Part shown: positions 19,363 to 61,659 of the stretch, one piece after another
Numbering within the stretch: position 1 is the first letter of the stretch
How the letters are laid out: each line of letters starts with the position of its first letter
Assembly: GCA_963592135.1 (NCBI GenBank)
Contig: CAVAVP010000015.1
Span: 3,272-67,271, forward strand
Length of the DNA: 64,000 nt
Direction: 5' to 3'
Origin: a bacterium
Lineage (GTDB): Bacteria > Bacillota > Clostridia > Christensenellales > UBA3700
Made by a program: the position numbers and the translations under genes
Notes under the pieces: model-generated
Told to the model about the DNA's origin: nothing
The model's database searches: none
The model's input: the letters and a program-made list of their open reading frames with translations, nothing else

Positions 19363-19363
19363 T

Positions 19364-35763: not shown

Positions 35764-36525
35764 TTATTCTGCGTTGTAGTGGTCAAGTCTTGGGCTTTCA
35801 GTAAACTCTTTTGGAGAAACCCCAGTTATTTGTCTAAATACTCTTGAAAAATATAATTGATCTGTAAAGCCGCACATTTCGGCAATTTCAAATATTTTAT
35901 AGTTATTAATGTTTTTAGAAAGTAGAAGTTTTTGTGCAAAGTTTATTCTTGTATTTTTTAAGAATTGTAAAGGTGAAATTCCTTTTTCTTTAATAAATTG
36001 TCTTCTTAAATAATCTTTAGTTAAATCAAATTTGCTGTATACATCTTCAAGTTCAAATTCAGGGTCAGAGAAATTTTCTATGATAGCACTAGCTATTGCT
36101 TCAACTTGCTGAGATGCATGATTAGCACCGCCAAAATTGTTTAACATAGATAAAACAAGTTCGGAAAACGAAATGATTATATCAGACTGTTCGGATGTGT
36201 TTGCATTAAAATATCTAAAACACATATTTAAAATAGTAAGAAGGTCATTATTGCTGTTATCATCAACTAAAACTACATTTTTAAATGTTGGAGTCCAGTT
36301 AGCAACCGTTAAATGGATATTTCTAAAGCCATTTTGTGAATAGTTTGAGTGGATGGTATTTGGTGGAATTACAACAACTTGATTTTTGCTATATTCTACT
36401 TTTTGACTATCTGTTTCAATAATTCCATTACCATTTGTGCAATAAATGATTTCCCAATAGTTGTGTTGATGAGCTGAAACATTGAATGTTTTCATGTTTT
36501 TTCCGATATAGTTAATAACTGGCAT
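35764..36525 (-). CDS. AraC-family transcriptional regulator (cupin sensor + HTH), divergent from the sugar-acid locus
   Basis: C-terminal AraC HTH FEIAEMCGFTDQLYFSRVFRQITGVSPKEF. N-terminal cupin-like HQHNYWEIIYC. Confidence 0.85.
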   Translation of the reverse strand: MPVINYIGKNMKTFNVSAHQHNYWEIIYCTNGNGIIETDSQKVEYSKNQVVVIPPNTIHSNYSQNGFRNIHLTVANWTPTFKNVVLVDDNSNNDLLTILNMCFRYFNANTSEQSDIIISFSELVLSMLNNFGGANHASQQVEAIASAIIENFSDPEFELEDVYSKFDLTKDYLRRQFIKEKGISPLQFLKNTRINFAQKLLLSKNINNYKIFEIAEMCGFTDQLYFSRVFRQITGVSPKEFTESPRLDHYNAE

Positions 36526-36690
36526 AATTGAATATCCTCTTAAGTTTTGTAAAATAATTATTACACGAAAAGACTATTTTGTCCATAAATTAATCTAATT
36601 AATGTTTTAAAATTTTCTCTATAATAATTATAATAAGTATAAAGAGCAAAAAACTCTTTGAGATTTTGCGTTAAAAATGAGGTGTTTGTC

Positions 36691-37341
36691 ATGAAAAAAT
36701 ATGAAGTTTATCAAGCAGTAAAAAACGAGGGCGTTGTAGTTGTCGTTAGAGGAAACTCAGTTGAACAAGCAATAAAGACTGTTGAAGCTTGTTATGCAGG
36801 CGGAATTAAAATTATAGAAATTACATTTACAGTTCCAAATGCAGATCAAATCATAAAAGCATTAGTTGAAAAATATAAAGGTACTGATATGATAGTTGGC
36901 GCTGGAACTGTTTTAGATCCAGAAACAGCGAGAGCTGCAATTCTTGCAGGTGCACAATTTATAGTATCTCCAGCATTAAATGTCGAAACAATAAAACTTT
37001 GTAATAGATATTCAGTAGCTGTTATGAGTGGTATATTTACTCCAACTGAAGCGATTACAGCTCTTGAGTATGGCGTAGATATATTAAAACTATTCCCAGG
37101 AGATGTAGCAACACCAAAGGGATTAAAAGCCTTAAAGGGACCTCTTCCAAATGCAAATATTATGCCAACGGGTGGAGTATCTTTAGATAATGTTGGTGAA
37201 TGGTTTAAAGCAGGAGCATATGCAGTAGGTGCTGGCTCATTTATTACTAAAGGCGCAAGTGTAGGAGACTACAAGGCTGTTGAAAACACATCAAGAGAAT
37301 TCGTTGAAAAAGTGCACTCAATTATCAAGGGAGATAAATAA
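36691..37341 (+). CDS. eda: 2-dehydro-3-deoxyphosphogluconate (KDPG) / KHG aldolase
   Basis: VVVVVRG...GGIKIIEITF...GAGTVL...KLFPG blocks. Start at ATG 36691 with GAGGTG RBS. Confidence 0.85.
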   Translation: MKKYEVYQAVKNEGVVVVVRGNSVEQAIKTVEACYAGGIKIIEITFTVPNADQIIKALVEKYKGTDMIVGAGTVLDPETARAAILAGAQFIVSPALNVETIKLCNRYSVAVMSGIFTPTEAITALEYGVDILKLFPGDVATPKGLKALKGPLPNANIMPTGGVSLDNVGEWFKAGAYAVGAGSFITKGASVGDYKAVENTSREFVEKVHSIIKGDK

Positions 37342-37342
37342 T

Positions 37343-38368
37343 ATGACAAAGGTTTTAACAGTTGGCGAAATAATGATGAGATTGCAACCATCTGGTTACA
37401 AAAGATTAATGCAAGCTGAATCTTTAGATTTAGTATTTGGTGGAGGAGAAGCAAATGTTGCGGTATCACTTGCTCAGTTTGGGGTTGATACAGTTTATTT
37501 TACAAAATTGCCACAAAACCCACTTGCAGATAAATGTATAAATACGCTACGTGGTTGGGGAGTAGATACAACAAAAATAGTTCGCGGTGGAGATAGAATG
37601 GGAATTTATTTTTGTGAAAAAGGCTGTTCTCAAAGAGGTAGCAATGTTATCTATGATAGAAAAAGTTCAGCTATTTCTCAAATGATTCCAAGTGATTTTG
37701 ATGTAGATGAAGTTCTTGATGGTGTTGAGTGGCTTCACTGGACAGGAATCACACCTGCCATATCGGATTCAGCAACTGAATGCATGAAGGTTTTACTAAA
37801 GGCCGCAAAAGAAAAGGGTATAACTGTTTCTTGCGACTTAAACTTTAGAAAGAAACTTTGGAGCAAAGAAAAAGCAAATAAGGTTATGAGCGAACTTGTA
37901 AAATATGTTGATGTTTTAATTTCAAATGAGGAAGATTCAAAAGATGTATTTTCAATAGAAGCAGATAACACGGATATAAATGCTGGTGTTATCTCAACGA
38001 AAGGATATGAAAGCATCGGCAAGAAACTTATGGAAAAGTTCCCTAATTTAAAATATGTAGCATTTACCTTAAGAGAAAGTATATCCGCAAGTGAAAATGG
38101 TTGGTCAGGAATGCTTATATCTAAAAATGGTGCTTTTAAATCAAAAAGATATTTAATTCAAATTGTAGATAGAGTGGGCGGTGGAGATAGTTTTGGCGCT
38201 GGTTTAATTTATGGTTTATATAGTAAAATGAATGAACAAGACGCTATAGAATACGCGGTAGCTGCTTCATGTTTAAAGCATACAATTGAAGGTGATTTTA
38301 ATATAGCAAGTGTTGAAGAGGTTAAGAAACTAGCAGGAGGCGACGGAAGTGGTAGAGTTCAAAGATAG
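37343..38368 (+). CDS. kdgK: 2-dehydro-3-deoxygluconokinase (PfkB family)
   Basis: VLTVGEIMMRL N-terminus, GGGEANVAVSLAQFG, and C-terminal GGGDSFGAGLIYG. The ATG lies 1 nt after the eda stop. Confidence 0.85.
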   Translation: MTKVLTVGEIMMRLQPSGYKRLMQAESLDLVFGGGEANVAVSLAQFGVDTVYFTKLPQNPLADKCINTLRGWGVDTTKIVRGGDRMGIYFCEKGCSQRGSNVIYDRKSSAISQMIPSDFDVDEVLDGVEWLHWTGITPAISDSATECMKVLLKAAKEKGITVSCDLNFRKKLWSKEKANKVMSELVKYVDVLISNEEDSKDVFSIEADNTDINAGVISTKGYESIGKKLMEKFPNLKYVAFTLRESISASENGWSGMLISKNGAFKSKRYLIQIVDRVGGGDSFGAGLIYGLYSKMNEQDAIEYAVAASCLKHTIEGDFNIASVEEVKKLAGGDGSGRVQR

Positions 38369-39716
38369 ACCAGTGAACTTATTAAAATCTAAATTTTCAG
38401 TAGATTTATATAAGCAAGTTAAAGATTTACCAATTATAGATTATCATTGTCATTTATCTCCAAAAGAGATTTATGAAGATAAGCCTTTCGATAACATTGG
38501 AGAAATGTGGCTTGGTGGCGATCATTATAAATGGAGATTAATGCGTTCAAATGGCGTTGACGAAAAATATATTACAGGGGAAGCTTCGTGGGAAGAAAAG
38601 TTTAATGCTTTTATTGAAACTGTTTCAACAGCTTATGGTAATCCTATAATGGACTGGGTTGCTCTAGAACTTGAGATGTTTTTTAATATAACGCTTCCTC
38701 TTAAAAAAGAAAATGCAAAGAAAATTTGGGATGAGGCAAATAAACAAATTAGAGAAAAGAAATTATCTCCAAGAAAACTAATATTAATGTCAAATGTTGA
38801 ATATATAGCAACAACTGACGATCCAACAGACTCTCTTGAGTATCACAAACTAATTGCTCAAGATGATTCATTTAATGTTAAGGTTGTTCCATCATTTAGA
38901 GTAGATAATATTTTACTTGCAAGAGATCCAAATTATACTAAATACATTGAAAAATTAAGTAAGATTTCTGGAATTGTAATTGAAAATTTAAAAGATTTAA
39001 AAAGTGCAATTGAAAAGAGAATGGATTACTGGGTATCTTTAGGATGTAAGTTCTCGGATGTAGGAATACAGGATTTCCCAACAAATATATCCTCAGTTGA
39101 AGAAGCTAATGAATCATTTAAAAAACTTCTTAAAGGCGAGAAAGTTTCGGATGAAAAGTACTTAGGCTTTATAGGAAATATGATGATATATCTTGGTGAG
39201 TGTTATTTTATGAGAGATATGGTAATGCAACTTCATATTGCCGTTACTAGAAATAGCAATTCCTTGATGTACGAAATTTGTGGAAAGGATTCAGGTTTTG
39301 ATTGTGTAGGTGATGTAATCCCTGTCAAGTATGTTAGAAATATCTTAGATAAATTAAATCTTGAGAATCAATTACCTCAAACAATTATTTATACACTAAA
39401 TCCAACAATGAACTATACATTAATTACACTTTGCGGTGCATTTAGAGATGTGCACATGGGAATTTCTTGGTGGTTTGTAGATCATAAGAGAGGAATGTAT
39501 GAAATACTAGAAAATGTATCAGAACTTCTACATATTAAATCAATGGTAGGTATGCTTACTGATTCAAGAAGTTTTCTATCTTATGTAAGGCACGATTATT
39601 ATAGACAAATAGTTTGTGACTTTTTAGGTGGAATAATTAAAGAATGCGATGAAAATGCAATAAATATTGTAAAGGCACTTTGTTATCAAAATGCAAAAGA
39701 TATTATAGGAGAGTAA
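38349..39716 (+). CDS. uxaC: Glucuronate isomerase
   Basis: [15 protein letters not shown] hallmark. Length ~455 aa. GTG 38349 has AGGAGG 10 nt upstream and overlaps the kdgK 3' end. Confidence 0.85.
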
Positions 39717-39718
39717 TT

Positions 39719-40765
39719 ATGAGTTTTAAAATGACGTTCCGTTGGTACGGAGAAAATGACAAGATTACATTAGATTATATAAGACAAATTCCAGCAGTAA
39801 CTGGTATTGTTTCTGCAATTTATGATGTACCAGTTGGCGAGGTTTGGCCAATGGAAAATATCTTAAAAATGAAAAAACAATGTAATGATAAGGGGCTTAG
39901 TTTTGAAGTTGTTGAATCAGTTCCAGTACATGAGGATATAAAACTTGGAAATGCTAATGCTAAAAAGTACATTGAAAATTATAAAGAAAATATAAGACGA
40001 CTAGGAAAAGCAGGTGTTAAATGTATTTGCTATAACTTTATGCCAGTATTTGATTGGTTAAGAAGTAATTTATCAAAAGAACTTACCGATGGTTCATATG
40101 CTCTAGCATATGATCATGCAACAGTTTTATCTATGAATCCATTAACATCAGAGCTTTCTCTTCCAGGTTGGGATTCAAGTTATACAAAGGAAGGACTAAA
40201 AGATTTATTAAATCAATATAAAGATATTGATGAAGAAAAACTATGGGAGAACATGGGAGTGTTTTTAAAGGAAATTATTCCTGTTGCAGAGGAAAGTGGA
40301 ATTAAAATGGCAATACATCCTGATGATCCTCCATGGGGAATATTTGGACTTCCAAGAGTTATAACAAACAAAGCGAACTTAGAAAGATTTTTAAAGATTG
40401 TGGATTCACCTGCAAATGGTGTAACGCTTTGTACAGGCTCGCTTGGAGTTTCTACGACAAATGATATCGTTGATTTAGTTAAGACTTGCAAGGGTAGAAT
40501 GCCGTTTGTTCATTTAAGAAATATTAAAATAACAGGAGATCATTGCTTTGAAGAGTCAGGACATTTATCTTCAAAAGGCTCTTTAGACATGTATGCAATC
40601 ATTAAAGCATTAAATGATGATGGATTTGATGGTTATGTTCGTCCAGACCATGGAAGAATGATTTGGGGAGAAACAGGAAGACCAGGTTATGGTCTATATG
40701 ATAGAGCACTTGGTGCTATGTATTTACAAGGAATTATAGAAGCTGTAGAAAAGGCTAATAAATAG
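39719..40765 (+). CDS. uxuA: Mannonate dehydratase
   Basis: [15 protein letters not shown]-terminus, HPDDPPW and RPDHG blocks. RBS GGAGAG. Confidence 0.9.
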
Positions 40766-40776
40766 GAGGAATTTTT

Positions 40777-41613
40777 ATGAAAGTAGATATGAGAGGTGAA
40801 GTTGTAGTAATTACTGCAGGTGGTGGCGTTATTTGTGGCGCAATGGCAAAAGAATATGCTAAAAATGGAGCAAAGGTTGCCGTTTTGGACTTAAAAGAAG
40901 ATGCAGCAAAAGTAATTGCCGATGAAATAGTTAAAGATGGAGGAGTAGCAAAAGCTTATGGTGTTAACTGCCTAGAGATAGAATCTCTTGAAAAAGCTCA
41001 TCAAGCAATATTAAAAGATTTAGGAAAATGTACAATCCTTGTTAATGGAGCTGGTGGTAATAATCCTAAAGGTACAACAACTAATGAGTATTTTGATAAA
41101 TTAGATTTAGATGATCCTACAAAGGTATCTTTCTTTGATTTAGACCCAAATGGTGTAGATTTTGTTTTCAAGATTAATTTCTTAGGAACATTCTTAACAA
41201 CCCAAGTATTTGCTAAAGATATGTTAGATAATGGTGGTTGTGTTATAAATATTTCATCGATGAATGCTTTTAGACCATTAACTAAGATTCCTGCATACTC
41301 AGGTGCTAAGGCAGCTGTATCTAACTTTACTCAATGGCTTGCTGTTCACTTTGCTGGTGCTAATATTAGAGTAAACGCTATTGCTCCAGGATTTTTCGTA
41401 ACAAATCAAAATAGAGCATTATTATACAACAGCGATGGAACACCAACTCCAAGAACAGGAAAAATTATAGCTGGAACTCCAATGAGAAAGTTTGGTGAAA
41501 TTAGTGATTTAATGGGAGCTACAATGTTCTTGTCAGATAAGAGCGCATCAGGATTTATAACGGGGGTTGTACTTCCAATTGATGGTGGTTTTTCAGCATA
41601 TTCAGGAGTTTAA
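40777..41613 (+). CDS. uxuB: SDR-type D-mannonate oxidoreductase (fructuronate reductase, YjmF/UxuB-like)
   Basis: TAGGGVICG cofactor motif and YSGAKAA catalytic motif. Length 278 aa. Position next to uxuA. Confidence 0.7.
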   Translation: MKVDMRGEVVVITAGGGVICGAMAKEYAKNGAKVAVLDLKEDAAKVIADEIVKDGGVAKAYGVNCLEIESLEKAHQAILKDLGKCTILVNGAGGNNPKGTTTNEYFDKLDLDDPTKVSFFDLDPNGVDFVFKINFLGTFLTTQVFAKDMLDNGGCVINISSMNAFRPLTKIPAYSGAKAAVSNFTQWLAVHFAGANIRVNAIAPGFFVTNQNRALLYNSDGTPTPRTGKIIAGTPMRKFGEISDLMGATMFLSDKSASGFITGVVLPIDGGFSAYSGV

Positions 41614-41631
41614 TAAAGTAAGGAAAATTTT

Positions 41632-42927
41632 ATGGAAGAAGTAAAAGTTGCGATATTAGGTTTAGGTAATAGGGGAAAAAATTATGGCGGACACTTAGCA
41701 TTACAAGAAGGTGTTAAGATTGTTGCCATATGCGACAGGTATCAAGAAAAAATCGACAAGGTAAAGACTGTATGGGGAGTTGCTGATGAGATGTGCTTTA
41801 CAGATGAGGATAAATTCTTTGGACTTGGCAAAATTGCAGATACTATGGTTATTGCAACACAAGATAGAGATCATTATGGTCATGCGATGAAAGCATTGAA
41901 ACTTGGCTATAATCTTATGATAGAAAAACCTCTATCTCCAAATATTAATGAGTGCTTAGAGATGGAAGAATATGCGAGAAAACAAAATTGTAAAGTTTTA
42001 GTTTGCCATGTTTTAAGATATGCTCATTACTATAAGAAAATTAAGGAAATAATTGATTCTGGTATCCTTGGAAAGATAGTTTTAATTAATCATGACGAAG
42101 ATGTTGCTTATTGGCATTTTTGCCATAGCTATGTAAGAGGAAATTGGAGAGTCGAAGAAGAGACAAGTCCACTGCTTCTTGCAAAGTGCTGCCATGATAT
42201 GGATTTAATGTATTGGTACGCTGGTTCAAAGGCAAAGAGCGTTTCTTCATACGCATCGTTAAACTATTTTAAAAAGGAAAACGCACCAGAGGGTGCTACA
42301 GATACTTGTTTTGATTGTCCAAACAAAGATACGTGTAAGTTTGAATGTACTTACCAATATATTGGCAGAAAAAAGGGTATTTTTAAAGAAAAGAAAAAAT
42401 ATAAATGGAAGCCATATGCTTTTTGTATTTCAAATAAGCCAGAGGATATTATAGATAAATTAAAGAATGACGAAAGAGGAAAACTTTGGTCAAGATGTGT
42501 ATTTAAATGTGATAATGATGTTGTAGATTGTCAAACTGTAAATATGGAAATGGAAAATGGAATAAAAGTAATGCTTAATGTTAACGCATTTAATGAACAT
42601 GACCATAGACATACAGAAATACATGGTTCGAACGGTATTTTAATTGCAGATGATTCGGGTTCTGTTTTAAGGCTTCAATTATTTGGGAAAAAAGAAAAGA
42701 AAATTGTTGTTAACCTAATTCCTGTAATAAAAGGACACTTTGGTGGTGACCAAGGAGTTATAAAGGCAACAATAGATTTAGTTAGGGGGCAAATTGATCT
42801 AAATGGTCAATACACTTGGATTAAAGACACAATAGAAAGCCATAGAATTTGTGCTGCTGCAGATTTGTCTAGAAAAGAAAATGGAAGAAAGGTAGATATG
42901 ACTGAAATTCCAGATATAAGAGAGTAA
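41632..42927 (+). CDS. Gfo/Idh/MocA-family NAD(P) oxidoreductase with Cys-rich C-terminal inserts
   Basis: Rossmann VAILGLGNRG, EKP motif MIEKPL, HSYVRGNWR and CCHDMDL blocks. Cys clusters CFDCPNKDTCKFEC and CVFKCDNDVVDC. Confidence 0.8.
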   Translation: MEEVKVAILGLGNRGKNYGGHLALQEGVKIVAICDRYQEKIDKVKTVWGVADEMCFTDEDKFFGLGKIADTMVIATQDRDHYGHAMKALKLGYNLMIEKPLSPNINECLEMEEYARKQNCKVLVCHVLRYAHYYKKIKEIIDSGILGKIVLINHDEDVAYWHFCHSYVRGNWRVEEETSPLLLAKCCHDMDLMYWYAGSKAKSVSSYASLNYFKKENAPEGATDTCFDCPNKDTCKFECTYQYIGRKKGIFKEKKKYKWKPYAFCISNKPEDIIDKLKNDERGKLWSRCVFKCDNDVVDCQTVNMEMENGIKVMLNVNAFNEHDHRHTEIHGSNGILIADDSGSVLRLQLFGKKEKKIVVNLIPVIKGHFGGDQGVIKATIDLVRGQIDLNGQYTWIKDTIESHRICAAADLSRKENGRKVDMTEIPDIRE

Positions 42928-42940
42928 AGTAGGGGTTTAT

Positions 42941-43582
42941 ATGATTACTGCACATGGTGGTTCATTTGGTTCTGGTAGAAATTCGCATAGTTATTTAAAT
43001 AATGTCGATGTGTATGAGGCCGACGCAATAGAAGTAGATATATATAAAAATTTTGGAATATTGTATATATCTCATATGCCAGCTCCATTTACTTGTTGGA
43101 AAAAGATAAGACTTAGAGAAGTATTTAAACTTGTAAAAGAAAAAGAAATAAAAGTTAATTGTGATTTAAAACAACATGGTATTATAAAAGATGTAATAAA
43201 CTTAGCCAAAAGTATGGGAATGGAAAATCAATTAATCTTTACAGGTAGTGTAAGAGAATCAGATTATAAAATTATTGATTGTGGAGAAGTATGGTTAAAT
43301 AAAATGAAAGGAATTTCTTATTCAACTAAAAATGTGCCACAAATTAAAGCAAGGTTAGATAGTTTTAACAACCCAAGATTTAAAGGAATTAATATAAATT
43401 ATAGAAAACTTTCTGGAAAGTTTATAGAAACATGTAAAATGTATAATGTACCAATAAGTGCATTCACTATAGATAATGTAAATAAGTTGTTAAAGTTGGT
43501 GCCTATTATTGATGGCAATATAACAACCAATTTGCCTTTAGTAGCAAGGTCTATATTAAATAAGTCAAAAAAGGAGAATTAA
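42941..43582 (+). CDS. Glycerophosphodiester phosphodiesterase (GDPD)-like protein, short form
   Basis: ITAHGGS (HRG position), ADAIEVDI (E-x-D), YISHM, VNCDLK, FTIDN and IDGNITTNLP are colinear with GDPD blocks. Length is only 213 aa. Confidence 0.55.
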   Translation: MITAHGGSFGSGRNSHSYLNNVDVYEADAIEVDIYKNFGILYISHMPAPFTCWKKIRLREVFKLVKEKEIKVNCDLKQHGIIKDVINLAKSMGMENQLIFTGSVRESDYKIIDCGEVWLNKMKGISYSTKNVPQIKARLDSFNNPRFKGININYRKLSGKFIETCKMYNVPISAFTIDNVNKLLKLVPIIDGNITTNLPLVARSILNKSKKEN

Positions 43583-43583
43583 G

Positions 43584-44732
43584 ATGGTAAACGTTGCGGT
43601 TATAGGCGTTGGAAGAATGGGTTCTAAACATGCAAAAAATTTATCTAAGTGGGTTAAAAATGCACACCTTGTTTCAATATGTGATTTAAATCCACAACTT
43701 CTAAATAAGTTTTCAAAAGAATTACATATAAAAGGTTATCAAGACTATAAGGAAATGATAGAAAAAGAAAATTTAGACGCAGTTGTTATTGCAACACCTC
43801 ATTATTCTCATGTAAAAATTGCAAAAGATTGTATAAATAAAGGTTTAAATGTTTTGTGTGAAAAACCTATATCAGTTACAACTAAAGAAGCAAAAGAAAT
43901 TATAGATTTATATAATGAAAATCAAAACTTGATTTGTGCTATGATGTATAACCAAAGAACAAATCAAATGTATAAAAAAGCAAAAGAATTAATAGAAAGT
44001 GGAAGTATAGGTAAAATTCAAAGAGTTAATTTTATTATTACTGATTGGTATAGAGCTCAATTTTATTACAATATGGGAGGCTGGAGAGCTTCTTGGAGTG
44101 GAGAGGGCGGGGGTACCCTTATAAATCAATGTGTTCATCAAATAGATTTAATACAATGGCTTTGCGGTATGCCAAAAAAGATATACGCACATTCAAAAAC
44201 TGTAGGAAGAAGAATTACAACAGAAAATGATGTTACGGCAATAATGAAGTTTGATGATTTTGACTGTGTATTTACGGCTTCTACTCATGAAATTCCTGGA
44301 ACGAATAGATTAGAAATTGCAGGAGATAAAGGAAAGATTGTTATTAATAGTCTTACTATGAACTACACTTTAAATAAAATGAGTGAAAGTGAAGTTAATA
44401 AAAGGGCTAAAAGAGATTATGGAAATAAATCAGATAAAAAGGGAAAGAAACATTACACTTGGTATGGTTTAAAGAATGTAATAAAGGATGGATTTAGAGG
44501 CCAACAATGCAATATTTTAGACAACTTTATTGAGGCTGTTGAAACTAAAAATAAAGATATGCTTGTAGCAAAATTAGATGATGGCTTAAATGCTTTAACT
44601 ATTATAAATGCACTTAATTTAGCTTCATGGGAAGAAACGGAAATTGATATTCCTTTTGATGAGGATAAATATAATGAACTCTTAAGGATAAGAGTTGATG
44701 CCGAAAAAGTTACAATGGAAGATGAAGAGTAA
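43584..44732 (+). CDS. Gfo/Idh/MocA-family oxidoreductase (paralog A)
   Basis: VAVIGVGRMG, CEKPIS, and a shared block WYRAQFYYNMGGWRASWSGEGGGTLINQCVHQIDL. Confidence 0.8.
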   Translation: MVNVAVIGVGRMGSKHAKNLSKWVKNAHLVSICDLNPQLLNKFSKELHIKGYQDYKEMIEKENLDAVVIATPHYSHVKIAKDCINKGLNVLCEKPISVTTKEAKEIIDLYNENQNLICAMMYNQRTNQMYKKAKELIESGSIGKIQRVNFIITDWYRAQFYYNMGGWRASWSGEGGGTLINQCVHQIDLIQWLCGMPKKIYAHSKTVGRRITTENDVTAIMKFDDFDCVFTASTHEIPGTNRLEIAGDKGKIVINSLTMNYTLNKMSESEVNKRAKRDYGNKSDKKGKKHYTWYGLKNVIKDGFRGQQCNILDNFIEAVETKNKDMLVAKLDDGLNALTIINALNLASWEETEIDIPFDEDKYNELLRIRVDAEKVTMEDEE

Positions 44733-44742
44733 GGAGATATAT

Positions 44743-45693
44743 ATGTCTAACGTTAAAATTTCAGGATTTTATGATGAAGCAAATCCAAACATTGAGGAAC
44801 AATGTAAGTTAGTTGTTTCATTTAATGAAAAATATCTTTGTCCAAGAAGAATAAAAAAAGATAAAGAAATTACTGATTATACAAAAGAAGAATTTGAACA
44901 AGAAGTAAAACCAATTTTAGATAAATATGGTGTTAAGTTTTCATCTATTGGTTCAAAAATTGGAAAGATGAATCTTTATGATAATGAATCTTTTGAAATC
45001 CAAAAAAATAAATTAAAAGAGCTTGTAAAAATAGCTCAAATTATGGATTGCAAATACATAAGAATATTCTCGTTTTTTGTTGATTCAAAAGGAAATTATG
45101 ATGAATATTTCCCTGAGGTTGTTAGAAAATTAAATGGCTTTTTAGAAATAGTAAAGGGAACTGATATTGTTCTTTTACATGAAAATGAAAAGAAGATATT
45201 TGGAGATATTCCAGATAGAGTTAAAAAATTGTATAATGAGTTAAATGATCCTCAATTTAAACTTGTATTTGACGCTTCAAATTATATTCAATGTGATGTA
45301 GATGCAAAAATGGCCTATGAGGAACTAAAGGATATTACAGAATATTATCATATTAAAGATTGCTCTAAAGAAAAAGTTGAAGTTCCAATAGGAATGGGTG
45401 AGGGTGATTATGAACATATGATTTATGACTTAATTGTAAATAGAAATTATGATGGATTTTTAACACTTGAGCCTCATACTGGGAAATATGCAATAGGAAG
45501 AAATTATACAAAGATTTTATTCCCAATTACAAATTTAATTCCCATAACTAAAAATTGGAAGAAAGTTTTTGATAAAATAGACGAAAAGATGGGGATTAAA
45601 AAGAGTGAAAAAGTTTCAACTGCACAAATATTTAAATGGCAATATGATGGCCTAAAAAAGATGATAGAAAATGCGGAGCAAAAGGAGAATTAA
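44743..45693 (+). CDS. Xylose-isomerase-like TIM-barrel protein (sugar phosphate isomerase/epimerase family)
   Basis: AAGGAG RBS. Blocks YIRIFSF, LHENE and FLTLEPH are typical of the AP endonuclease 2/TIM family. Confidence 0.7.
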   Translation: MSNVKISGFYDEANPNIEEQCKLVVSFNEKYLCPRRIKKDKEITDYTKEEFEQEVKPILDKYGVKFSSIGSKIGKMNLYDNESFEIQKNKLKELVKIAQIMDCKYIRIFSFFVDSKGNYDEYFPEVVRKLNGFLEIVKGTDIVLLHENEKKIFGDIPDRVKKLYNELNDPQFKLVFDASNYIQCDVDAKMAYEELKDITEYYHIKDCSKEKVEVPIGMGEGDYEHMIYDLIVNRNYDGFLTLEPHTGKYAIGRNYTKILFPITNLIPITKNWKKVFDKIDEKMGIKKSEKVSTAQIFKWQYDGLKKMIENAEQKEN

Positions 45694-45695
45694 TT

Positions 45696-46019
45696 ATGAA
45701 AAATATCGATAAAAAGAAAGTTTTAGTACTAAAGGATGAAGTAAAATATTGTGATGGACAAGTTGTAAGTAAAACATTAGAACAAAACAATCATCATTCT
45801 GTTACTCTATTTTCTTTGGATAAAGGTGAAGAAATTTCATCACATAGAGCAGGCGGCGATGCCTTTGTGTATGTTCTTGATGGAAAATGTGAAATAACTA
45901 TTGATGAAGATAAGTTTGTACTAACTGAGGGAAACAGTATAGTAATGCCTAAAGATCATCCACACGCATTACTTGCGCTTGAAAAATTTAAAATGTTACT
46001 TGTTGTTTGTTTTGATTAA
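45696..46019 (+). CDS. Cupin-domain protein (107 aa)
   Basis: GEEISSHRAGGDAFVYVLDG...MPKDHPHAL corresponds to the two cupin motifs. Confidence 0.7.
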   Translation: MKNIDKKKVLVLKDEVKYCDGQVVSKTLEQNNHHSVTLFSLDKGEEISSHRAGGDAFVYVLDGKCEITIDEDKFVLTEGNSIVMPKDHPHALLALEKFKMLLVVCFD

Positions 46020-46040
46020 TAAAAAAGGAGAAAAAAAATT

Positions 46041-47213
46041 ATGAATAAAGTTAGATATGGTATTGTGGGCATAGGAAAACAAGGATCAAAATACGCTGAA
46101 TTTATATATAAAGGTTTAGATAAAAATGGTGTACTTGCGGCAGTTTGTGATATAAGCAAAGAAAGAAGAGACTGGGCAGAGCAAAATTTAAGAGGTGTTA
46201 AAATTTTTGAAGATTATAATGAAATGTTCAAAAGTGGACTTATTGATGCAGTTCTTGTTGAAACACCACATTACCAACACCCCGTAATTCTAAAAGATGC
46301 ATTAGATGCAAATTTACATGTTATGTCGGATAAGCCAGCGGGTGTTTATACAAAAGCTGTCAGAGAAGCAGCAGAGTACGCAAAAACAAAACCTGAATTA
46401 AAATGTGCTCTTTTATTAAATCAAAGAACAAATAAAGTATATAAAGAAGCAAAGAAAATTATTGATTCTGGAGAACTTGGCGAATTAAAGAGAATAGTTT
46501 GGATTATTACAAACTGGTATAGACCACAAGCATACTATGACCAAGGTGGCTGGAGAGGTACTTGGAATGGCGAAGGTGGTGGAGTTTTAATTAACCAAGA
46601 TCCACACCAACTAGATTTATTCACATGGCTTGCTGGTCAAAAGATGACAAAAGTTTGGGCTACGGCAAAAACTGTTGGTAGAAAAATTAATGTAGAAAAT
46701 GATGTTACTGCATGCTGCGAATTTGAAAATGGTGCCACTGGTGTGTTTATTACATCAACTCATGATGCACCAGGGACAAATAGATTGGAAATTACAGGAG
46801 ATGGCGGAAAGATTGTTATTTATGGTAAAAACGACTTATCTATGAAGTTAGAGTTTACTAAAAACGATATGTTAGAACCAGAATTTTCAAAAGTTAATAA
46901 AGTATTTATGGGCAAACCAAAAACTACAACTAAGAAAATTAAATACTCTCCATGTGAAGTTTTAAGAATGTTAATTAAAAATTATGGATTCCAACATCCA
47001 GATGTTATAAGAAATTTTTCAAATGTAATTTTAGGAAATGAAAAAGAATTAATCGGAAGATATGAAGAAGGCTTAAATGGTTTAACATTCTCAAATGCAA
47101 TTCATTTATCTTCATGGACTGGTAAGGAAATTACACTTCCAATGGAAGAGGATTTATTTATAGAAGAACTTGAAAAGAGAAAACAAGAAGAAAACGCTAA
47201 ATCTGACAAATAA
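46041..47213 (+). CDS. Gfo/Idh/MocA-family oxidoreductase (paralog B)
   Basis: YGIVGIGKQG, SDKPAG, and the shared block WYRPQAYYDQGGWRGTWNGEGGGVLINQDPHQLDL. Confidence 0.8.
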   Translation: MNKVRYGIVGIGKQGSKYAEFIYKGLDKNGVLAAVCDISKERRDWAEQNLRGVKIFEDYNEMFKSGLIDAVLVETPHYQHPVILKDALDANLHVMSDKPAGVYTKAVREAAEYAKTKPELKCALLLNQRTNKVYKEAKKIIDSGELGELKRIVWIITNWYRPQAYYDQGGWRGTWNGEGGGVLINQDPHQLDLFTWLAGQKMTKVWATAKTVGRKINVENDVTACCEFENGATGVFITSTHDAPGTNRLEITGDGGKIVIYGKNDLSMKLEFTKNDMLEPEFSKVNKVFMGKPKTTTKKIKYSPCEVLRMLIKNYGFQHPDVIRNFSNVILGNEKELIGRYEEGLNGLTFSNAIHLSSWTGKEITLPMEEDLFIEELEKRKQEENAKSDK

Positions 47214-47224
47214 AAAGGTGAAAA

Positions 47225-49147
47225 ATGGCTGTTCAGTATAAAGATGGGGAAATTATTGTAAGCAATTTATATCATGAAGCAACGTATTATGACGTAGCAA
47301 ATAATTTAATTACAGCTCAATTTGATGGAAAAGGGGCTATATCTAAATATGCTGTTATGAATAAATTTTCAGTATTTTCAGCATACTATACAATGTTTAG
47401 TGTAGATGGTGTAGCTTTTGATTGGAATGCAGAAAAAATAGTTGAGATGATTGGTAAGAAAATGGTGTCAAAATTTGGAAATAAGGATTTTGATATTGTT
47501 TTAACACAATTCCTTGATGATAACACAAATTGTATTTATTCAGAGTTTAAAGTTATTGCCAAAAAGGATATGGATTTTAGAATTACAAATAATTTTGGTA
47601 TAGATTTTAGATCATATCTAGAACAATTTTTAGCTAATAGATTAAGCATTGGTAATATTTGTAAAGTAATAGGTGGACTTGTTAAAAAGACGCCAAAAGT
47701 TAAAACTCATAATAATATCTCTTACGTAAGAGGTAATGTTATGGGAGATTTTTATTTAGATATTGCAACAAACTATGAGCTCGTAGCACTAGAAGCTGAA
47801 AGAGGATTTACAAATCAATTTGAAATCGGCTCAAAGATGAAAAAGGGTGAAACTAAAGTATTTAGGTACGCTTTATCTTGTGGAACAAGAGGAGATTTTA
47901 CTTATAGTGATGTTGTTGCGTGTTTGCTTGATTTTGATAATGCCTACATGAGAACTGAAAATTATATTAATTCTCTAAAATGCCCAGAAAGTGTAAATAG
48001 TGAATTTTTAAAGACATATTATAAATCTTTATTAAATGCATCACTTTCTAATTACAAGGAACTTGGGAAATTTAAAGGCTTTTTAGCAGGTATTGTTTAT
48101 CAATTCCCAGCAAGAACTTATTATAGAGATTCGTATTGGACCGTACTTAGTGTGCTTCCTGTTCAACCTCAGCTTGTAAGAAATGAAATTATTACTCTTG
48201 CAAACGGAATAAACAAAAAAGGTGAGTGTCCAAGTGCTGTAAAGTTTAACTTTAAAAATTATTGGGGCAATCACTATGATTCACCATCATTCTTCGTGAT
48301 GATGATTTATGACTATGTAGTTCATACAAAAGATAAGACAATTTTAACAGAGTCCGTTGCATGTGGAACGGTGCTTGAGAGCGCAAAATTAGTTATAGAT
48401 AGACTATATCAAGAAGTAGAAGAATCGACAGGACTTTTGCTAAAGGGTGGAGAATATAATAGAAGAGATTGGTGTGATAATGTTTTTAGATCAGTATATT
48501 GCACATATGATGAAGTACTATACGCTAGAGCTTTATATTGCTTAGGAGATATTTATTCTTTATTTGATCAAGATTTATCTAATAAATATTTAGCAATGTC
48601 TCAAAAGGTGAAAGATAGTATAAATAAATATCTTTGGAATGAAGAAAAAGGTTGGTATGTAAACTATAAGTCTAAAGATTTTACAGAAGATAATTTGTCT
48701 ATAGACACGGTAGTGGCTGCATTGTATGGAATAGCTGATGATAATAGAGCAAAAAGAATGCTATCTAATATGGAAAAATATCTAGAGTCTAAAAATAACA
48801 AAGAGCAAATTGCTGGTGATTTTGGAACTTTAAGTGTTTATCCATTCTATAAGAATAATAGAGATATTGTACAAAAGTCATCGCTTCCATATTACTATCA
48901 TAATGGAGGGGACTGGCCATATCTATCTTGCATTTACGCATATGCAAAATTGATGTATAATATGGATTATATGTATCCACTGACAAGATGGTATGAATAT
49001 AATATTGAAAAGGGGAATTATACTCCAATTGAATTCTTTAATCCATTGCAAAAGGATGGTTCGCTTTTACAAGCATGGTCGTCAACTGGAGCTTTTGTGT
49101 TAAGTTATCCAAAGGGAGATTTCTTTAAGAAAAAGATTGAAAAATAA
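47225..49147 (+). CDS. (alpha/alpha)6-barrel glycoside-hydrolase-like protein (GDE_C / GH63-like), specificity unknown
   Basis: C-terminal half has YYRDSYWT, RRDWCDN and YYHNGGDWPYL blocks, which resemble amylo-alpha-1,6-glucosidase/GH63-type barrels. The N-terminal beta-rich domain is unassigned. Confidence 0.55.
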   Translation: MAVQYKDGEIIVSNLYHEATYYDVANNLITAQFDGKGAISKYAVMNKFSVFSAYYTMFSVDGVAFDWNAEKIVEMIGKKMVSKFGNKDFDIVLTQFLDDNTNCIYSEFKVIAKKDMDFRITNNFGIDFRSYLEQFLANRLSIGNICKVIGGLVKKTPKVKTHNNISYVRGNVMGDFYLDIATNYELVALEAERGFTNQFEIGSKMKKGETKVFRYALSCGTRGDFTYSDVVACLLDFDNAYMRTENYINSLKCPESVNSEFLKTYYKSLLNASLSNYKELGKFKGFLAGIVYQFPARTYYRDSYWTVLSVLPVQPQLVRNEIITLANGINKKGECPSAVKFNFKNYWGNHYDSPSFFVMMIYDYVVHTKDKTILTESVACGTVLESAKLVIDRLYQEVEESTGLLLKGGEYNRRDWCDNVFRSVYCTYDEVLYARALYCLGDIYSLFDQDLSNKYLAMSQKVKDSINKYLWNEEKGWYVNYKSKDFTEDNLSIDTVVAALYGIADDNRAKRMLSNMEKYLESKNNKEQIAGDFGTLSVYPFYKNNRDIVQKSSLPYYYHNGGDWPYLSCIYAYAKLMYNMDYMYPLTRWYEYNIEKGNYTPIEFFNPLQKDGSLLQAWSSTGAFVLSYPKGDFFKKKIEK

Positions 49148-49163
49148 TTGGGAGGGGTTAATT

Positions 49164-50834
49164 GTGAGTGAAACAACATCAACAGAAGAAGTTGTCTTAG
49201 AAAACGATGGTTCTGCATGTTTGTCTGAGGATCAAAAAAGAGTAATGAGCAAAAAGTATTTATCCGGAAAGGATTATACTTTATTCTCGTTAGCTAGATT
49301 TGCATCTTCTGCGGTTACAGGCTTGGTTCAAGGTTATTTGCTATACTTTTACACTTCATGTATAGGTATTTCAGCAAGTGCAGTAGGTGTAATGTTTTTA
49401 GTATCAAAAATATTTGATGGTTTAAATGATCCTATAATGGGTGTTATTGTAGATAAAACTAGAACTAAAATGGGGAAAATGAGGCCTTATTTATTGGCGG
49501 GCGCAATTCCATGGGGAATTATAACTATTCTTATGTTCTTACCTCAGATATATGCTGGCATGAATATGTCGGGTAAAATTGCTTATATGTACGTTACATA
49601 TTTGCTTTATGGTATTATGGGAACAATTATAGGTGTACCTCTTGATGGTATTCCGGCTGTAGCGTCTCCAAATACTGATGAGAGAGCAAAAATAATTTCT
49701 ATAAGCCGTGTTTTAGGAAGTATTGGTGAACAATCAGCTTTAGTTTTACTTACATTTTTCTTGCTACTTACACATGATGATTATACAAGTTCATATATGT
49801 GGATGGGGATTATTATAGGTGTGCTTGGGCCTCTATTTATGGTTCTTGGATGTTTATCTATAAAAGAAAGATTAGAGCCAACAAAGCAAACACCAAGTAT
49901 GCTTGAAGGTTTTAAATATTTATTTAAGAATAAGCAATTTTTCCTATTAATTTTGTCTAATTTGCTTACATTCTTTAGAAACTTAGTATCAGCAATGATA
50001 GTTTATGTAGTTTCTTATGTAATTGCTAAAGGCTCTCTTCAAATAGTATTTTCACTCCCAGGTGCCATCGCCTCTATGATAGGTATGATGATAGCCCCTA
50101 AACTTAGAAAATTAATGGATTCCAAGAAATTGTTTATACTTGCAACAATTTGGCATTCTGCAGTATTAGCTTTAATATTCTTTATTTGCTTAATTGTAGG
50201 TGTAGATAAGCTTCCTACAACATGGGGATGGATTATGCTTGCAGGATTAATGTTCTTTGCAATGATTCCAGTTGGTATATTAAACGTAATACCACACTTA
50301 ATGGCAACAGATACTCTAGATTATTGGGAAGATAAAACAGGTGAAAGATGCGAGGGTATTACATTCTCGCTAATGAGCTTAAGAAGTAAGATATCTTCTG
50401 GATTTAAAGATTATGTTTTAGCATGGTTATTATCGTTCTTCTTATTTGCTCAACCAATGAGTTATATAACAAGTCATAAGCCTGTTCAAACTGAGTTTAC
50501 AAAAGTTGGATTAATTATGATTTATACAATAATTCCAGCAGTTACAAATTTGGTTTCTATAATTCCAATGTTATTCTATAAACTAAGCGGAAAGAAAATG
50601 GCAGAAATTCAATCAAGACTTGCTGTAACTCGTGCCGAATCAGCTTTAAGATTAGAAAAGGCAAATAGCGGCGAGACAGTTCAAGATATAAACATGGTAG
50701 AAGATGTTAAACAAGAGCCTATTCAAGAGACTGTATTAGAAACTTCTAAAGAGGAGCCTTCTATAGACGTTGTTAATAATGTTAAAAAAGATACATTATT
50801 AGATGTAAATAAAGAACAAAAGGAGGAAATATAA
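49164..50834 (+). CDS. GPH-family (glycoside-pentoside-hexuronide:cation) symporter with a hydrophilic C-terminal tail
   Basis: GGAGGGG RBS before GTG 49164. About 12 TM segments. Signature SKIFDGLNDPIMGVIVDKTRTKMGKMRPY. A ~70-aa acidic tail follows. Confidence 0.8.
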   Translation: MSETTSTEEVVLENDGSACLSEDQKRVMSKKYLSGKDYTLFSLARFASSAVTGLVQGYLLYFYTSCIGISASAVGVMFLVSKIFDGLNDPIMGVIVDKTRTKMGKMRPYLLAGAIPWGIITILMFLPQIYAGMNMSGKIAYMYVTYLLYGIMGTIIGVPLDGIPAVASPNTDERAKIISISRVLGSIGEQSALVLLTFFLLLTHDDYTSSYMWMGIIIGVLGPLFMVLGCLSIKERLEPTKQTPSMLEGFKYLFKNKQFFLLILSNLLTFFRNLVSAMIVYVVSYVIAKGSLQIVFSLPGAIASMIGMMIAPKLRKLMDSKKLFILATIWHSAVLALIFFICLIVGVDKLPTTWGWIMLAGLMFFAMIPVGILNVIPHLMATDTLDYWEDKTGERCEGITFSLMSLRSKISSGFKDYVLAWLLSFFLFAQPMSYITSHKPVQTEFTKVGLIMIYTIIPAVTNLVSIIPMLFYKLSGKKMAEIQSRLAVTRAESALRLEKANSGETVQDINMVEDVKQEPIQETVLETSKEEPSIDVVNNVKKDTLLDVNKEQKEEI

Positions 50835-50835
50835 C

Positions 50836-51921
50836 ATGAAAAAGAAAGTTTTATTATTAGCATCAACACTGCTTCTAATTGTTGTATTATCTTCATTTTT
50901 GTTTGCATGCTCAACAGAGACAAGACTTTCAACAAAAAGTTACAGCAAGCAAGTAGAGTATTACGAAGATTGTGTAAAGCAAGTTCAAAAATGTGAATCA
51001 ACATTAGATGAATTAAAATCTGAACTTTCAAAAACCAAGTTTAAAGCAGAGTTTGTTTTAGAAAGAAAGTATTATAGTACCGTAGATAATAACATTGAAT
51101 TTTTAGGTGCGGAGGGCATAAATAATTCAAATGCTGGTTTCGACAAGAGAAAAAACGAAACTGGAAGTTGTTGGATGATGGAAAATGTAAAATATGTTCT
51201 ATTATTTAATAATGGTTCATACAAGATAACAGCATCAGTTGCGGATCCGGTAAAGTATGATGATTATGATGAAGATAAGGTAGATTATAAAAACAATTAT
51301 GTGTTTGCATATATAAATGGTGAATATACACAAATAGGTGGGGATGTTGCTGTTGTACAAAAATATTGTATAAATATGATGTATGAATATATCTTTGGTC
51401 AGTTTACTTCAAAAGAATTTTTAGAAGCCTATGCAATATCAGCAGAGAAAGGATTTAGAATATATACGTCTATGATGCAATATCAATTAACTAGAGCTTA
51501 TGGGTATAATTCAGATGGAACAATTGACATAAGTAAAGTTTTAGATTATTCGCTAAATAAAGATAAGTTGTTATTCTCATCGCTAACAGAAAGCGCAGAT
51601 GGAAACGGGAAACTTACATATGTAGATAATGATGAAAATAAGGTTGATCCAACAAGTGAAGATGTTTCTTATTGGGACAACTATGGAGAGGATATTTCAT
51701 ATAATTTCTATAAGACAGCAGAGGTTGTAAACGATAGAATAACAATGACATATTCAAACTCTAAAAAGAAAATTGATTCATTTGAATATTACGGAGAAAA
51801 AGTGCTACCATATTACGCACAAAAGAGTGACTTTAAGACATATAGCATAAGACAGTGTGTGGTTGCAGAATCTACTCATTTTGTAGTAAATTTTGATTAT
51901 GAAGCAAATGTAGAATTATAA
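50836..51921 (+). CDS. Lipoprotein of unknown function, last gene of the sugar locus
   Basis: Signal peptide with lipobox LLLIVVLSSFLFAC. ATG lies 1 nt after the transporter stop. I recognise no domain. Confidence 0.65.
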   Translation: MKKKVLLLASTLLLIVVLSSFLFACSTETRLSTKSYSKQVEYYEDCVKQVQKCESTLDELKSELSKTKFKAEFVLERKYYSTVDNNIEFLGAEGINNSNAGFDKRKNETGSCWMMENVKYVLLFNNGSYKITASVADPVKYDDYDEDKVDYKNNYVFAYINGEYTQIGGDVAVVQKYCINMMYEYIFGQFTSKEFLEAYAISAEKGFRIYTSMMQYQLTRAYGYNSDGTIDISKVLDYSLNKDKLLFSSLTESADGNGKLTYVDNDENKVDPTSEDVSYWDNYGEDISYNFYKTAEVVNDRITMTYSNSKKKIDSFEYYGEKVLPYYAQKSDFKTYSIRQCVVAESTHFVVNFDYEANVEL

Positions 51922-51964
51922 AAAAGATGGGCAGTAAGTTGCCCATATTTTAAAAGGGGAATAT

Positions 51965-52635: not shown

Positions 52636-52790
52636 AAACAAGTCATAATTTTTTCTAAAATCAAGAAATTTACATATTTTTTACTTTTAAAATTAAGATT
52701 TTACATTCTTTATACATAAATCTCTATTGACCTATATTATTATATAAATGTAGGTTTTGGCCTAAGAATCAAAAACTAATGGAGGGATTT

Positions 52791-61624: not shown

Positions 61625-61659
61625 AAGCGTAGCAATTAAATGCTACGCTTTTTTGTTTT
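61625..61659 (+). terminator. Rho-independent (bidirectional) terminator between convergent genes
   Basis: AAGCGTAGCA-ATTAAA-TGCTACGCTT forms a 10-bp stem, followed by TTTTGTTTT. The stem overlaps the stop codon of the minus-strand GH2 gene. Confidence 0.7.

Follow-up and report, generated by a model that had tools for sequence, protein, structure and literature searches.

A probable AraC-controlled operon for oxidative 3-keto cleavage of glucuronides in a Christensenellales bacterium

The window, a stretch of 64,000 nt from a bacterium of the Christensenellales (GenBank assembly GCA_963592135.1, contig CAVAVP010000015.1, positions 3,272 to 67,271 of the forward strand), has a G+C content of about 30%. 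At positions 35764-51921 of the window, a locus of 15 genes was analyzed, which consists of one gene for an AraC-family regulator on the (−) strand and 14 genes on the (+) strand. The latter are eda, kdgK, uxaC, uxuA and uxuB, and genes for three Gfo/Idh/MocA oxidoreductases (gA, gB and gC), a protein of 213 amino acids (aa; p213), a xylose-isomerase-like TIM barrel (TIM), a cupin, a six-hairpin glycosidase/phosphorylase-like protein (AA6), a GPH-family symporter and a putative lipoprotein. The locus is probably a single AraC-controlled operon for the catabolism of glucuronides, which would be split by oxidative 3-keto cleavage, followed by catabolism of the glucuronate. Both the 3-keto chemistry and the glucuronide substrate are suggested by analogy with the enzymes of the P2B11 gene cluster. 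A prediction made from the DNA sequence alone (hereafter the original prediction) had named the same gene families, as confirmed by Pfam and NCBIfam scans. It had called the module downstream of the hexuronate genes uncharacterized, which holds for AA6, gA and p213, but not for the core of gB, gC and TIM, which matches the P2B11 pathway and whose chemistry was already described in 2024. What appears to be new is that the 3-keto route is tied to a transporter, a regulator and the breakdown of glucuronate, and that AA6 apparently stands in for the P2B11 protein Iso2.

In the proposed pathway, the glucuronide would be imported into the cytoplasm by the GPH symporter. The C3 of the glucuronic acid would be oxidized by gC, helped or complemented by gB, with tightly bound NAD. 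TIM, as a Mn/Co-type homolog of the P2B11 protein Iso1, would then take the C2 proton and eliminate the aglycone from C1. The resulting 2-hydroxy-3-keto-glycal uronate would be hydrated, and gC/gB would reduce the hydrated product back to D-glucuronate. Finally, UxaC, the fructuronate reductase of the short-chain dehydrogenase/reductase (SDR) type, UxuA, KdgK and Eda would convert glucuronate to pyruvate and glyceraldehyde-3-phosphate. The idea of import, oxidative cleavage via 3-keto intermediates and the feeding of a uronate into the 2-keto-3-deoxygluconate (KDG) pathway had been put forward in the original prediction and is backed by the P2B11 homology and the conserved neighborhoods.

When gut bacteria remove glucuronic acid from drugs, hormones or dietary compounds, these become active again, and GH2 beta-glucuronidases are usually held solely responsible. 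If the proposal is correct, this widespread operon, whose hosts are uncultured yet common Clostridia in the guts of humans, mice, poultry and ruminants, would show that the 3-keto splitting of glucuronides is a genuine nutritional pathway with transporter, regulator and glucuronate catabolism attached. Inhibitors of beta-glucuronidase would miss such a route, and the cleavage should ignore the anomeric configuration as well as S-linkage. Concrete targets are the small unclassified six-hairpin family at the position of the second lyase/hydratase and the subfamily of Cys-rich Gfo/Idh/MocA oxidoreductases.

Similarity of gB, gC and TIM to the P2B11 enzymes

P2B11 is a human-gut fosmid described by Nasseri, Withers and colleagues (bioRxiv 10.1101/2024.03.25.586180), the DNA of which is most like Collinsella according to the supplement. 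The cluster Iso1-Oxido1-Oxido2-Iso2 hydrolyzes alpha-, beta- and thio-glucuronides by C3 oxidation, aglycone elimination, hydration and reduction, is stimulated by Mn2+/Co2+ and needs no addition of NAD. Oxido1 together with one or both "isomerases" is sufficient for aglycone release, and Oxido2 only raises the rate (10.1101/2024.03.25.586180, supplement). Near the cluster, no transporter or regulator was reported on the fosmid (10.1101/2024.03.25.586180). Literature searches for 3-keto glucuronide pathways and for glucuronate/inositol clusters of Christensenella brought up nothing later than this preprint.

Among the solved structures, gC (46041..47213, + strand, 390 aa) was found to match PDB entry 8TDI, "P2B11 Glucuronide-3-dehydrogenase", with 311 bits (E=1.4e-91, residues 1-384 against 1-392). 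The full-length match of gB (43584..44732, + strand, 382 aa) to the same entry reached 245 bits (E=1.6e-71). The second-best solved structures for gB and gC scored about 116 bits. These are 3Q2K and 3Q2I, which are labelled only "oxidoreductase" or "dehydrogenase" and which we take to be WlbA UDP-N-acetylglucosaminuronate (UDP-GlcNAcA) 3-dehydrogenases. This assignment would again fit the C3 oxidation of a uronic acid sugar.

In BLASTP comparisons, gC was 40% identical to Oxido1 over the full length (E=2e-100), gB 35% over the full length (E=2e-80) and TIM (44743..45693, + strand, AP_endonuc_2) 37% identical to Iso1 in a 243-residue alignment (E=3e-47), whereby these identities are approximate, since the source of the four P2B11 sequences was a machine-read supplement and Oxido1 was corrected against the 8TDI alignment. 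All six residues of the Oxido1 pocket (N147/W179/R181/Y185/N205/H209) are invariant in 66 gB and 53 gC orthologs. Likewise, the metal-ligand positions HENE...D...H...E of TIM are invariant in its orthologs and in Iso1. gC is thus considered the likely ortholog of P2B11-Oxido1, that is, a glucuronide 3-dehydrogenase, and TIM the putative 3-keto-glucuronide 1,2-lyase. With its sequence alone TIM matched no solved structure, and its profile gave only generic matches such as AsbF. Since Oxido1 and one "isomerase" suffice for aglycone release, the window holds the minimal set in the form of gC/gB and TIM. A glucuronide-type substrate, which had been named as possible in the original prediction, gains weight from the homology of these three proteins to a glucuronide-cleaving set.

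No such counterparts were found for the other two P2B11 proteins. The alignment of Oxido2 with gB and gC (29-34% identity) is confined to their N-terminal 230 residues, and gB is a second Oxido1-like paralog. For Iso2, no tblastn or BLASTP match was found in the 64-kb window or in the AA6-containing loci described below, except for a weak iolE-like match in locus L002.

Shared with P2B11 are the Oxido1 homologs with the identical six-residue pocket, the Iso1 homolog with the same metal ligands, and the setting, which is Gram-positive, cytoplasmic (no signal peptides in the N-termini that were read) and without DUF1080. The differences concern Iso2 and an Oxido2 ortholog, neither of which was found in the window, the second oxidoreductase, which is an Oxido1 paralog, and the gene order, which is gB-TIM-(cupin)-gC in the window but Iso1-Ox1-Ox2-Iso2 in P2B11. 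Furthermore, the window adds AA6, gA, p213, the GPH symporter and the lipoprotein, and its module lies in one putative operon with the glucuronate catabolic genes. On sequence grounds, the locus appears to work like, and partly to belong to, a P2B11-type system, with two components present, Iso2 absent and Oxido2 apparently replaced. By the criterion set in the original prediction, the P2B11 core match speaks in part against an uncharacterized module, but the gene sets overlap without being the same.

Other systems with related chemistry were also compared. The general 3-keto mechanism was worked out for the enzymes AL1-AL4 of Alistipes and BT2156-BT2160 of Bacteroides thetaiotaomicron. The sequence of a Gfo/Idh/MocA 3-dehydrogenase, a TIM-barrel 1,2-lyase, a hydratase and a reduction is alike, but those enzymes work in the periplasm on neutral glucosides and depend on an alpha-lyase/hydratase of the DUF1080 (GH16-like) type. 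Membership in this system was rejected, as no DUF1080 was found and the models for BT_2158 and BT_2159 (NF058561 and NF058563) scored 38-73 bits against cutoffs of 650-750. The IolG/IolE system was rejected as well, with 75-154 bits against the cutoff of 355 for TIGR04380 and no iolB, iolC or iolD in the window.

The same outcome was obtained for the DgpA/DgpBC and LgdA/B/C systems. That the locus is an analog of these, acting on C-glycosides or in a levoglucosan-type route on neutral sugars, is extremely unlikely. The superfamilies are the same, and DgpA and levoglucosan dehydrogenase are among the weaker PDB matches (51-65 bits), but these scores are 4-6 fold below those for 8TDI. The levoglucosan dehydrogenase model NF052479 reached 29-80 bits against a cutoff of 650. 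Neither a DgpB/C chain, searched with both sequence and profile, nor an LgdB structure, searched with the profile, was matched by TIM. In addition, it would make no sense for a system acting on neutral C-glucosides to be linked to the breakdown of glucuronate. The analogies to inositol (IolG/IolE) and C-glycoside (DgpA/BC) enzymes drawn in the original prediction are hence far weaker than the match to P2B11.

The single-enzyme NAD-dependent glycosidases of GH109 and GH188 share the Gfo/Idh/MocA fold and the idea of C3 oxidation and elimination, but carry out all steps in one active site, and their similarity to the window proteins is low (45-70 bits). PDB entry 8QC2 was among the weak matches of gA and gB; 8QC2 and 8QC3 are presumably the GH188 sulfoquinovosidase SqgA.

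In the classical route of E. coli, glucuronides are taken up by the GPH transporter UidB/GusB (uidB/gusB) and hydrolyzed by the GH2 beta-glucuronidase encoded by uidA, followed by UxaC, UxuB, UxuA, KdgK and Eda. In common with this route, the window has an importer of the GPH family and, further downstream, the isomerase (Ashwell) pathway. A classical GH2 beta-glucuronidase was not found in the locus by Pfam scans, and the cleavage predicted for the window would be oxidative and indifferent to the anomeric configuration.

Operon structure and conservation of the gene order

The AraC-family regulator (35764..36525, − strand; Pfam HTH_18, HTH_AraC and AraC_binding) has an N-terminal cupin sensor and a C-terminal helix-turn-helix domain. 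Its gene is divergent from the operon and separated from eda by 165 bp. A promoter-like site TTTAAA-17-TATAAT (36606..36634, + strand) was predicted in this intergenic region by a consensus scan only, and a GAGGTG sequence sits 7 nt 5′ of the eda ATG. A divergent AraC gene is also located 5′ of the operon in the relatives L054, L077 and L093 and is common next to P2B11-type clusters (L127, L128, L134-L137, L139, L141 and L145, all metagenome contigs). The original prediction had described the locus as AraC-flanked; only one AraC gene is present, and on the other side a flavin-reductase-like gene (51965-52444), a gene for a 729-aa lipoprotein (52779-54968), an unknown open reading frame (ORF) and argG/argH were found.

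The KDPG/KHG aldolase gene eda (36691..37341, + strand) was identified with 288.8 bits for NF005119 (cutoff 238) and 188.6 bits for TIGR01182 (cutoff 156). It is followed by the kdgK-type PfkB sugar kinase gene (37343..38368, + strand; Pfam PfkB), the product of which reached 537 bits with the kinase half of a KHG/KDPG aldolase-kinase fusion model and stayed below the cutoff of the KDG kinase models. For the glucuronate isomerase gene uxaC (38349..39716, + strand), 503.8 bits were obtained with NF002794 (cutoff 387); its start codon is uncertain. The mannonate dehydratase gene uxuA (39719..40765, + strand) scored 496 bits with NF003027 (cutoff 191) and 425 with TIGR00695 (cutoff 200), and the SDR-type D-mannonate (fructuronate) oxidoreductase (40777..41613, + strand), a functional UxuB, 402.5 bits with NF006132 (cutoff 281). 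The glucuronate branch is thus complete, with UxaC, the SDR reductase, UxuA and Eda above the curated NCBIfam cutoffs and a kinase that is KDG-kinase-like but below them. UxaA and UxaB of the galacturonate branch were not detected in the locus by the family scans, which leaves the glucuronate branch only.

From eda to the lipoprotein gene, all spacings are 21 bp or shorter and some genes overlap. A scan of 35764-51921 revealed no convincing terminator on the (+) strand. This agrees with the earlier statement that the genes run without real gaps, whereas the number of genes after uxuB is nine and not ten. Directly 3′ of the last gene, a 7-bp GC-rich hairpin (51927..51946) is a possible weak terminator.

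Related loci were collected via AA6, resulting in a total of 82 loci (80 from 117 matches in species-representative genomes, plus L001 and L002), the ORFs of which were called mechanically and classified against the window proteins. The relative L003 is 96% identical to the window. The colinear gene order is kept in about 50 species-level genomes with protein identities of 50-96%. Its recurrence in dozens of species-level genomes is far more than chance would produce.

Type I (about 35 loci) has the order uxaC-uxuA-uxuB-gA-(u151)-PHP-p213-gB-TIM-gC-AA6-GPH-lipoprotein. Type II comprises the window, L003 and about 11 others and corresponds to this order minus u151 and PHP. The cassette of u151 (151 aa, no known family) and a PHP-domain gene lies between gA and p213 in most relatives (types I, IV and V; 4582-6000 in L001 and 6919-8320 in L002) and has been lost from the window and about a dozen other loci. 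The four type III loci have the order AraC<-eda-kdgK-uxaC-uxuA-uxuB-gB-TIM-gC-AA6-GPH, with neither gA nor p213. Type IV (3 loci) consists of gA-u151-PHP-p213-TIM-AA6-GPH without gB/gC and hexuronate genes, and type V (about 20 loci) of GH20-u151-PHP-p213-gB-like-AA6 without TIM.

Two type IV loci adjoin inositol-catabolism-like genes, namely iolB/D/E/G/C in L002 (1-5351) and iolE/G/C in L040. This could point to an inositol-containing substrate or be a coincidence. The shorter contig of the type IV locus L042 carries p213-TIM-AA6-GPH only. In the type V locus L063 (4119-21917) of a Stercoripulliclostridium-like genome, AA6 follows a GH20 hexosaminidase, u151, PHP, p213 and a gB-like gene, and TIM is absent. 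The genes downstream of it code for an Ig-domain protein of 1,286 aa, an aminotransferase of class III, two aldolases of class II and a further MFS_2 transporter. The type V locus thus gives the impression of a separate pathway in which AA6 and an enzyme resembling the glucuronide dehydrogenase have been put to another use.

Loci without AA6 were compared as well. Group B of the Clostridia (e.g., L088 and L102-L119) has the order uxaC-uxuA-uxuB-eda-kdgK-(gB)-TIM-gC-GPH-Iso2-like. Like the window, it has TIM and gC of the same clades (48-62% identity), a module fused to glucuronate genes and a GPH transporter, but it carries an Iso2-like TIM barrel of 251 aa and no AA6, gA or p213. The Group B loci are unannotated in the public data, and no published description was found. 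Group C comprises P2B11-like clusters with the order Iso1-Ox1-Ox2-Iso2, often with a divergent AraC gene and sometimes with adjoining uxaC, which lies directly downstream in four loci (L129, L136, L137 and L141).

Adjacent genes were counted in loci with at least 6 kb on either side of TIM; the loci were not dereplicated, so the counts are not independent events. At least three hexuronate genes adjoin the module in 42 of 47 AA6 loci and in all 19 non-AA6 loci with a window-type TIM, compared to none of the 15 P2B11-type loci. Based on the first two counts, Clostridia regularly have the 3-keto module joined to the genes of glucuronate catabolism, and the neighborhood conservation that had been proposed earlier as a check was found. 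As the module is nearly always located beside or inside the genes of the glucuronate branch, the route from glucuronide via glucuronate to KDG is supported. An Iso2-like gene was detected in none of the 47 AA6 loci, in 14 of the 19 non-AA6 loci with a window-type TIM and in all 15 P2B11-type loci (29 of 34 without AA6). AA6 and Iso2 are therefore mutually exclusive within the stretches examined.

It is very unlikely that the hexuronate genes have nothing to do with the genes downstream of them and that the two units happen to abut. P2B11-type clusters elsewhere mostly lie apart from hexuronate genes, as the 0/15 count illustrates, which would allow for such a case. However, the gap between uxuB and gA is 18 bp long and contains no terminator, the colinearity extends over the roughly 50 genomes down to about 50% identity, and in L087 a gB-TIM-gC-Iso2-like unit has uxuB on one side and uxaC on the other. 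The module follows directly after the hexuronate genes in L088 and Group B.

Several points weigh against the proposed glucuronide operon. The co-transcription of the 14 (+) strand genes is suggested by spacing and synteny. With 35-40% identity of gB, gC and TIM to their P2B11 counterparts, the substrate specificity may differ, and the P2B11 set itself also slowly cleaves 6-phospho, 6-sulfo and sulfoquinovosyl glycosides (10.1101/2024.03.25.586180). As Iso2 is absent and no clear Oxido2 ortholog is present, the hydration step is left without an assigned enzyme. Types IV and V retain AA6, but lack gC and the hexuronate genes. Furthermore, AA6, gA and p213 are strongly conserved yet stand outside the simple scheme, which suggests that the substrate is more complex than a plain glucuronide.

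In L086 (6093-10933) and L089 (5086-9933), uxaC-uxuA-uxuB-eda is followed by an Iso1-like TIM barrel alone, and no Oxido1-like oxidoreductase was found in the 9-10 kb fetched on either side. This hints at a role of its own for the TIM barrel in uronate metabolism.

AA6 and the accessory proteins

The 640-aa protein AA6 (47225..49147, + strand) has no signal peptide and is predicted to be cytoplasmic. Its AlphaFold model (predicted local distance difference test score of 84) consists of an N-terminal beta-sandwich and an (alpha/alpha)6 barrel. The top Foldseek matches were GH94 phosphorylases, the GH63 protein YgjK and GH116, with template modelling scores of 0.6-0.75 and 10-15% identity. At the sequence level, Pfam gave weak and partial matches to Trehalase, GDE_C, GH94 and GH100 (16-43 bits). 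Comparison of the sequence with solved structures resulted in partial matches to trehalase, invertase, GH78 and GH94 only, and the profile in partial matches to GH78, GH94 and GH37 with at most 34 bits. A full-length match at the family level to GH15, 37, 63, 65, 78, 94, 100 or 116 was not found in the Pfam and PDB profile searches. Since ten distant relatives were equally ambiguous in Pfam, AA6 can be assigned to no family.

The AA6 family is small, with 116 representatives at E<=1e-30 in a profile search of 1.84 billion representatives. About 400 close relatives were found in a set of 5.8 billion proteins, all of them unnamed or "hypothetical" and from uncultured Clostridia. All 117 places in species-representative genomes belong to Christensenellales-like Clostridia that are uncultured and stem from the guts of humans, mice, chickens and ruminants.

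Our working view is that AA6 either trims an oligosaccharide, exposing a glucuronide with a free 3-OH, or replaces the Iso2 lyase/hydratase. The role of an unmasking exo-glycosidase or phosphorylase would be consistent with many invariant acidic and basic residues and with the adjacency to the GPH transporter in types I-IV. The replacement of Iso2 is suggested by the same position after gC and the strict exclusivity with Iso2, and by type V, which pairs AA6 with a gB-like dehydrogenase in the absence of TIM. There is also a precedent, as the DUF1080 protein with a glycoside hydrolase fold acts as lyase/hydratase.

Tentatively, AA6 may represent a new enzyme class with 3-keto-glycoside intermediates as substrates, being a lyase, a 2-hydroxy-3-keto-glycal hydratase or both. 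It would replace Iso2 in Christensenellales-like Clostridia, comparable to the role that the GH16-like DUF1080 protein has in Bacteroidota. With the help of the Cys-rich gA it might open a natural glucuronoside of greater complexity than those tested to date, e.g., a glucuronosyl-inositol or a capped glucuronide. This extended proposal is speculative and clearly less likely than the glucuronide operon as such.

A more conventional alternative, in which AA6 is a hydrolase or phosphorylase that cleaves an imported oligosaccharide and the Gfo/Idh/MocA proteins and TIM process the released polyol or inositol in an IolG/IolE-like manner, is considered unlikely. It would fit the six-hairpin fold of glycoside hydrolases and phosphorylases, the joint occurrence of AA6 and the GPH transporter in most locus types, the iolB/D/E/G/C-like genes adjoining type IV loci and the sub-threshold IolG matches of all three oxidoreductases. 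However, the IolG scores of 75-154 bits (cutoff 355) compare with 245-311 bits and six of six pocket residues for 8TDI. TIM matches Iso1 with 3e-47 and IolE-like proteins only marginally. In addition, the window has no iol genes, and the gB-TIM-gC unit is found without AA6 inside hexuronate operons.

The 431-aa protein gA (41632..42927, + strand), which carries the Pfam GFO domains, belongs to a separate subfamily. It is only 26% identical to Oxido1, over the N-terminal part, and showed no match to 8TDI, the best PDB match being 54 bits. In all 48 orthologs, three of the six Oxido1 pocket residues differ (V/F/A for N147/R181/N205). Five invariant cysteines (C226-x2-C229-x5-C235 and C289-x3-C293) inside an insertion suggest a bound metal or iron-sulfur site, which to our knowledge is unusual for Gfo/Idh/MocA oxidoreductases. 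The subfamily has more than 6,000 members, and among the 120 listed only generic names were given, if any. Homologs with 40% identity are stand-alone genes in other genomes with uninformative context.

p213 (42941..43582, + strand) is a short divergent protein that had been called GDPD-like in the original prediction. By itself it has no Pfam match, but its ortholog profile weakly supports the assignment, matching the structure 2pz0 with E=3e-8 over residues 57-207 only, with the N-terminal catalytic region unaligned. By eye, the N-terminal motifs read AHGG...GRN...ExD...H compared to the canonical HR...EN...ExD...H, so that no Arg follows the first His and another residue stands in place of the Glu of "EN". 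The PHP-domain protein of the relatives is a CehA/McbA-family metallohydrolase and not clearly a phosphatase. A glycerophospho-linked substrate, as considered earlier, would rest only on the divergent p213, which is dispensable in type III loci, and is not favored.

A refinement of the proposed glucuronide route rather than an opposing explanation is that the substrate is a complex, possibly phosphodiester-linked glucuronosyl conjugate, such as the GlcA-inositol-phosphate head group of plant or fungal glycosyl inositol phosphorylceramide sphingolipids or a glucuronosyl-glycerol derivative. AA6 would then take off a sugar cap, the ester would fall to p213, in relatives jointly with the PHP-type hydrolase, and gA, gB, gC and TIM would split the remaining glycosidic bonds. 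The conserved gA/u151/PHP/p213 cassette in most relatives, the inositol genes beside type IV loci, the GH20 hexosaminidase beside type V loci and the different, less polar pocket of gA, which suggests a second sugar specificity, are in line with it. However, this support is purely contextual. The GDPD motifs of p213 are altered and its N-terminal catalytic region does not align to solved GDPDs, the PHP protein is a metallohydrolase absent from the window, type III loci do without gA and p213, and the iol adjacency is restricted to two loci. A substrate of this kind is therefore regarded as improbable.

The cupin gene (45696..46019, + strand; 107 aa, Pfam Cupin_2) was found only in the window and L003 among the 82 related loci and looks like a recent, lineage-specific insertion into an otherwise conserved gene order. 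The GPH-family cation symporter (49137..50834, + strand), the start codon of which is uncertain, scored 259 bits with TIGR00792 (cutoff 231) and stayed below the cutoffs of the YagG, MelB and glucuronide transporter models. The last gene (50836..51921, + strand) encodes a putative lipoprotein of 361 aa with a signal peptide and Cys (LFAC; N-terminal MKKKVLLLASTLLLIVVLSSFLFAC). It has no Pfam or NCBIfam match, and its counterparts, which follow GPH in 28 loci, show only weak conservation (21-50% identity).

Surroundings of the locus

In the closest relatives (L001, L003, L004 and L006), synteny extends over the genes for the 361-aa protein and the 729-aa lipoprotein downstream of it, including the intervening flavin-reductase-like gene. 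Neither of the two putative lipoproteins nor a 390-aa protein (55078-56250) belongs to a Pfam family. An Rfam scan of the window revealed no RNA families.

Just upstream of the AraC gene, a GH38 alpha-mannosidase gene (31747-34692) is located, and an ORF with beta-mannosidase-type Ig domains (61643-63181, − strand) lies near the window end, both without an evident tie to the operon. Unrelated to the operon are a stand-alone condensation-domain protein similar to those of nonribosomal peptide synthetases (11327-12613) and a radical-SAM protein with a Radical_SAM_N2 domain (19340-21115).

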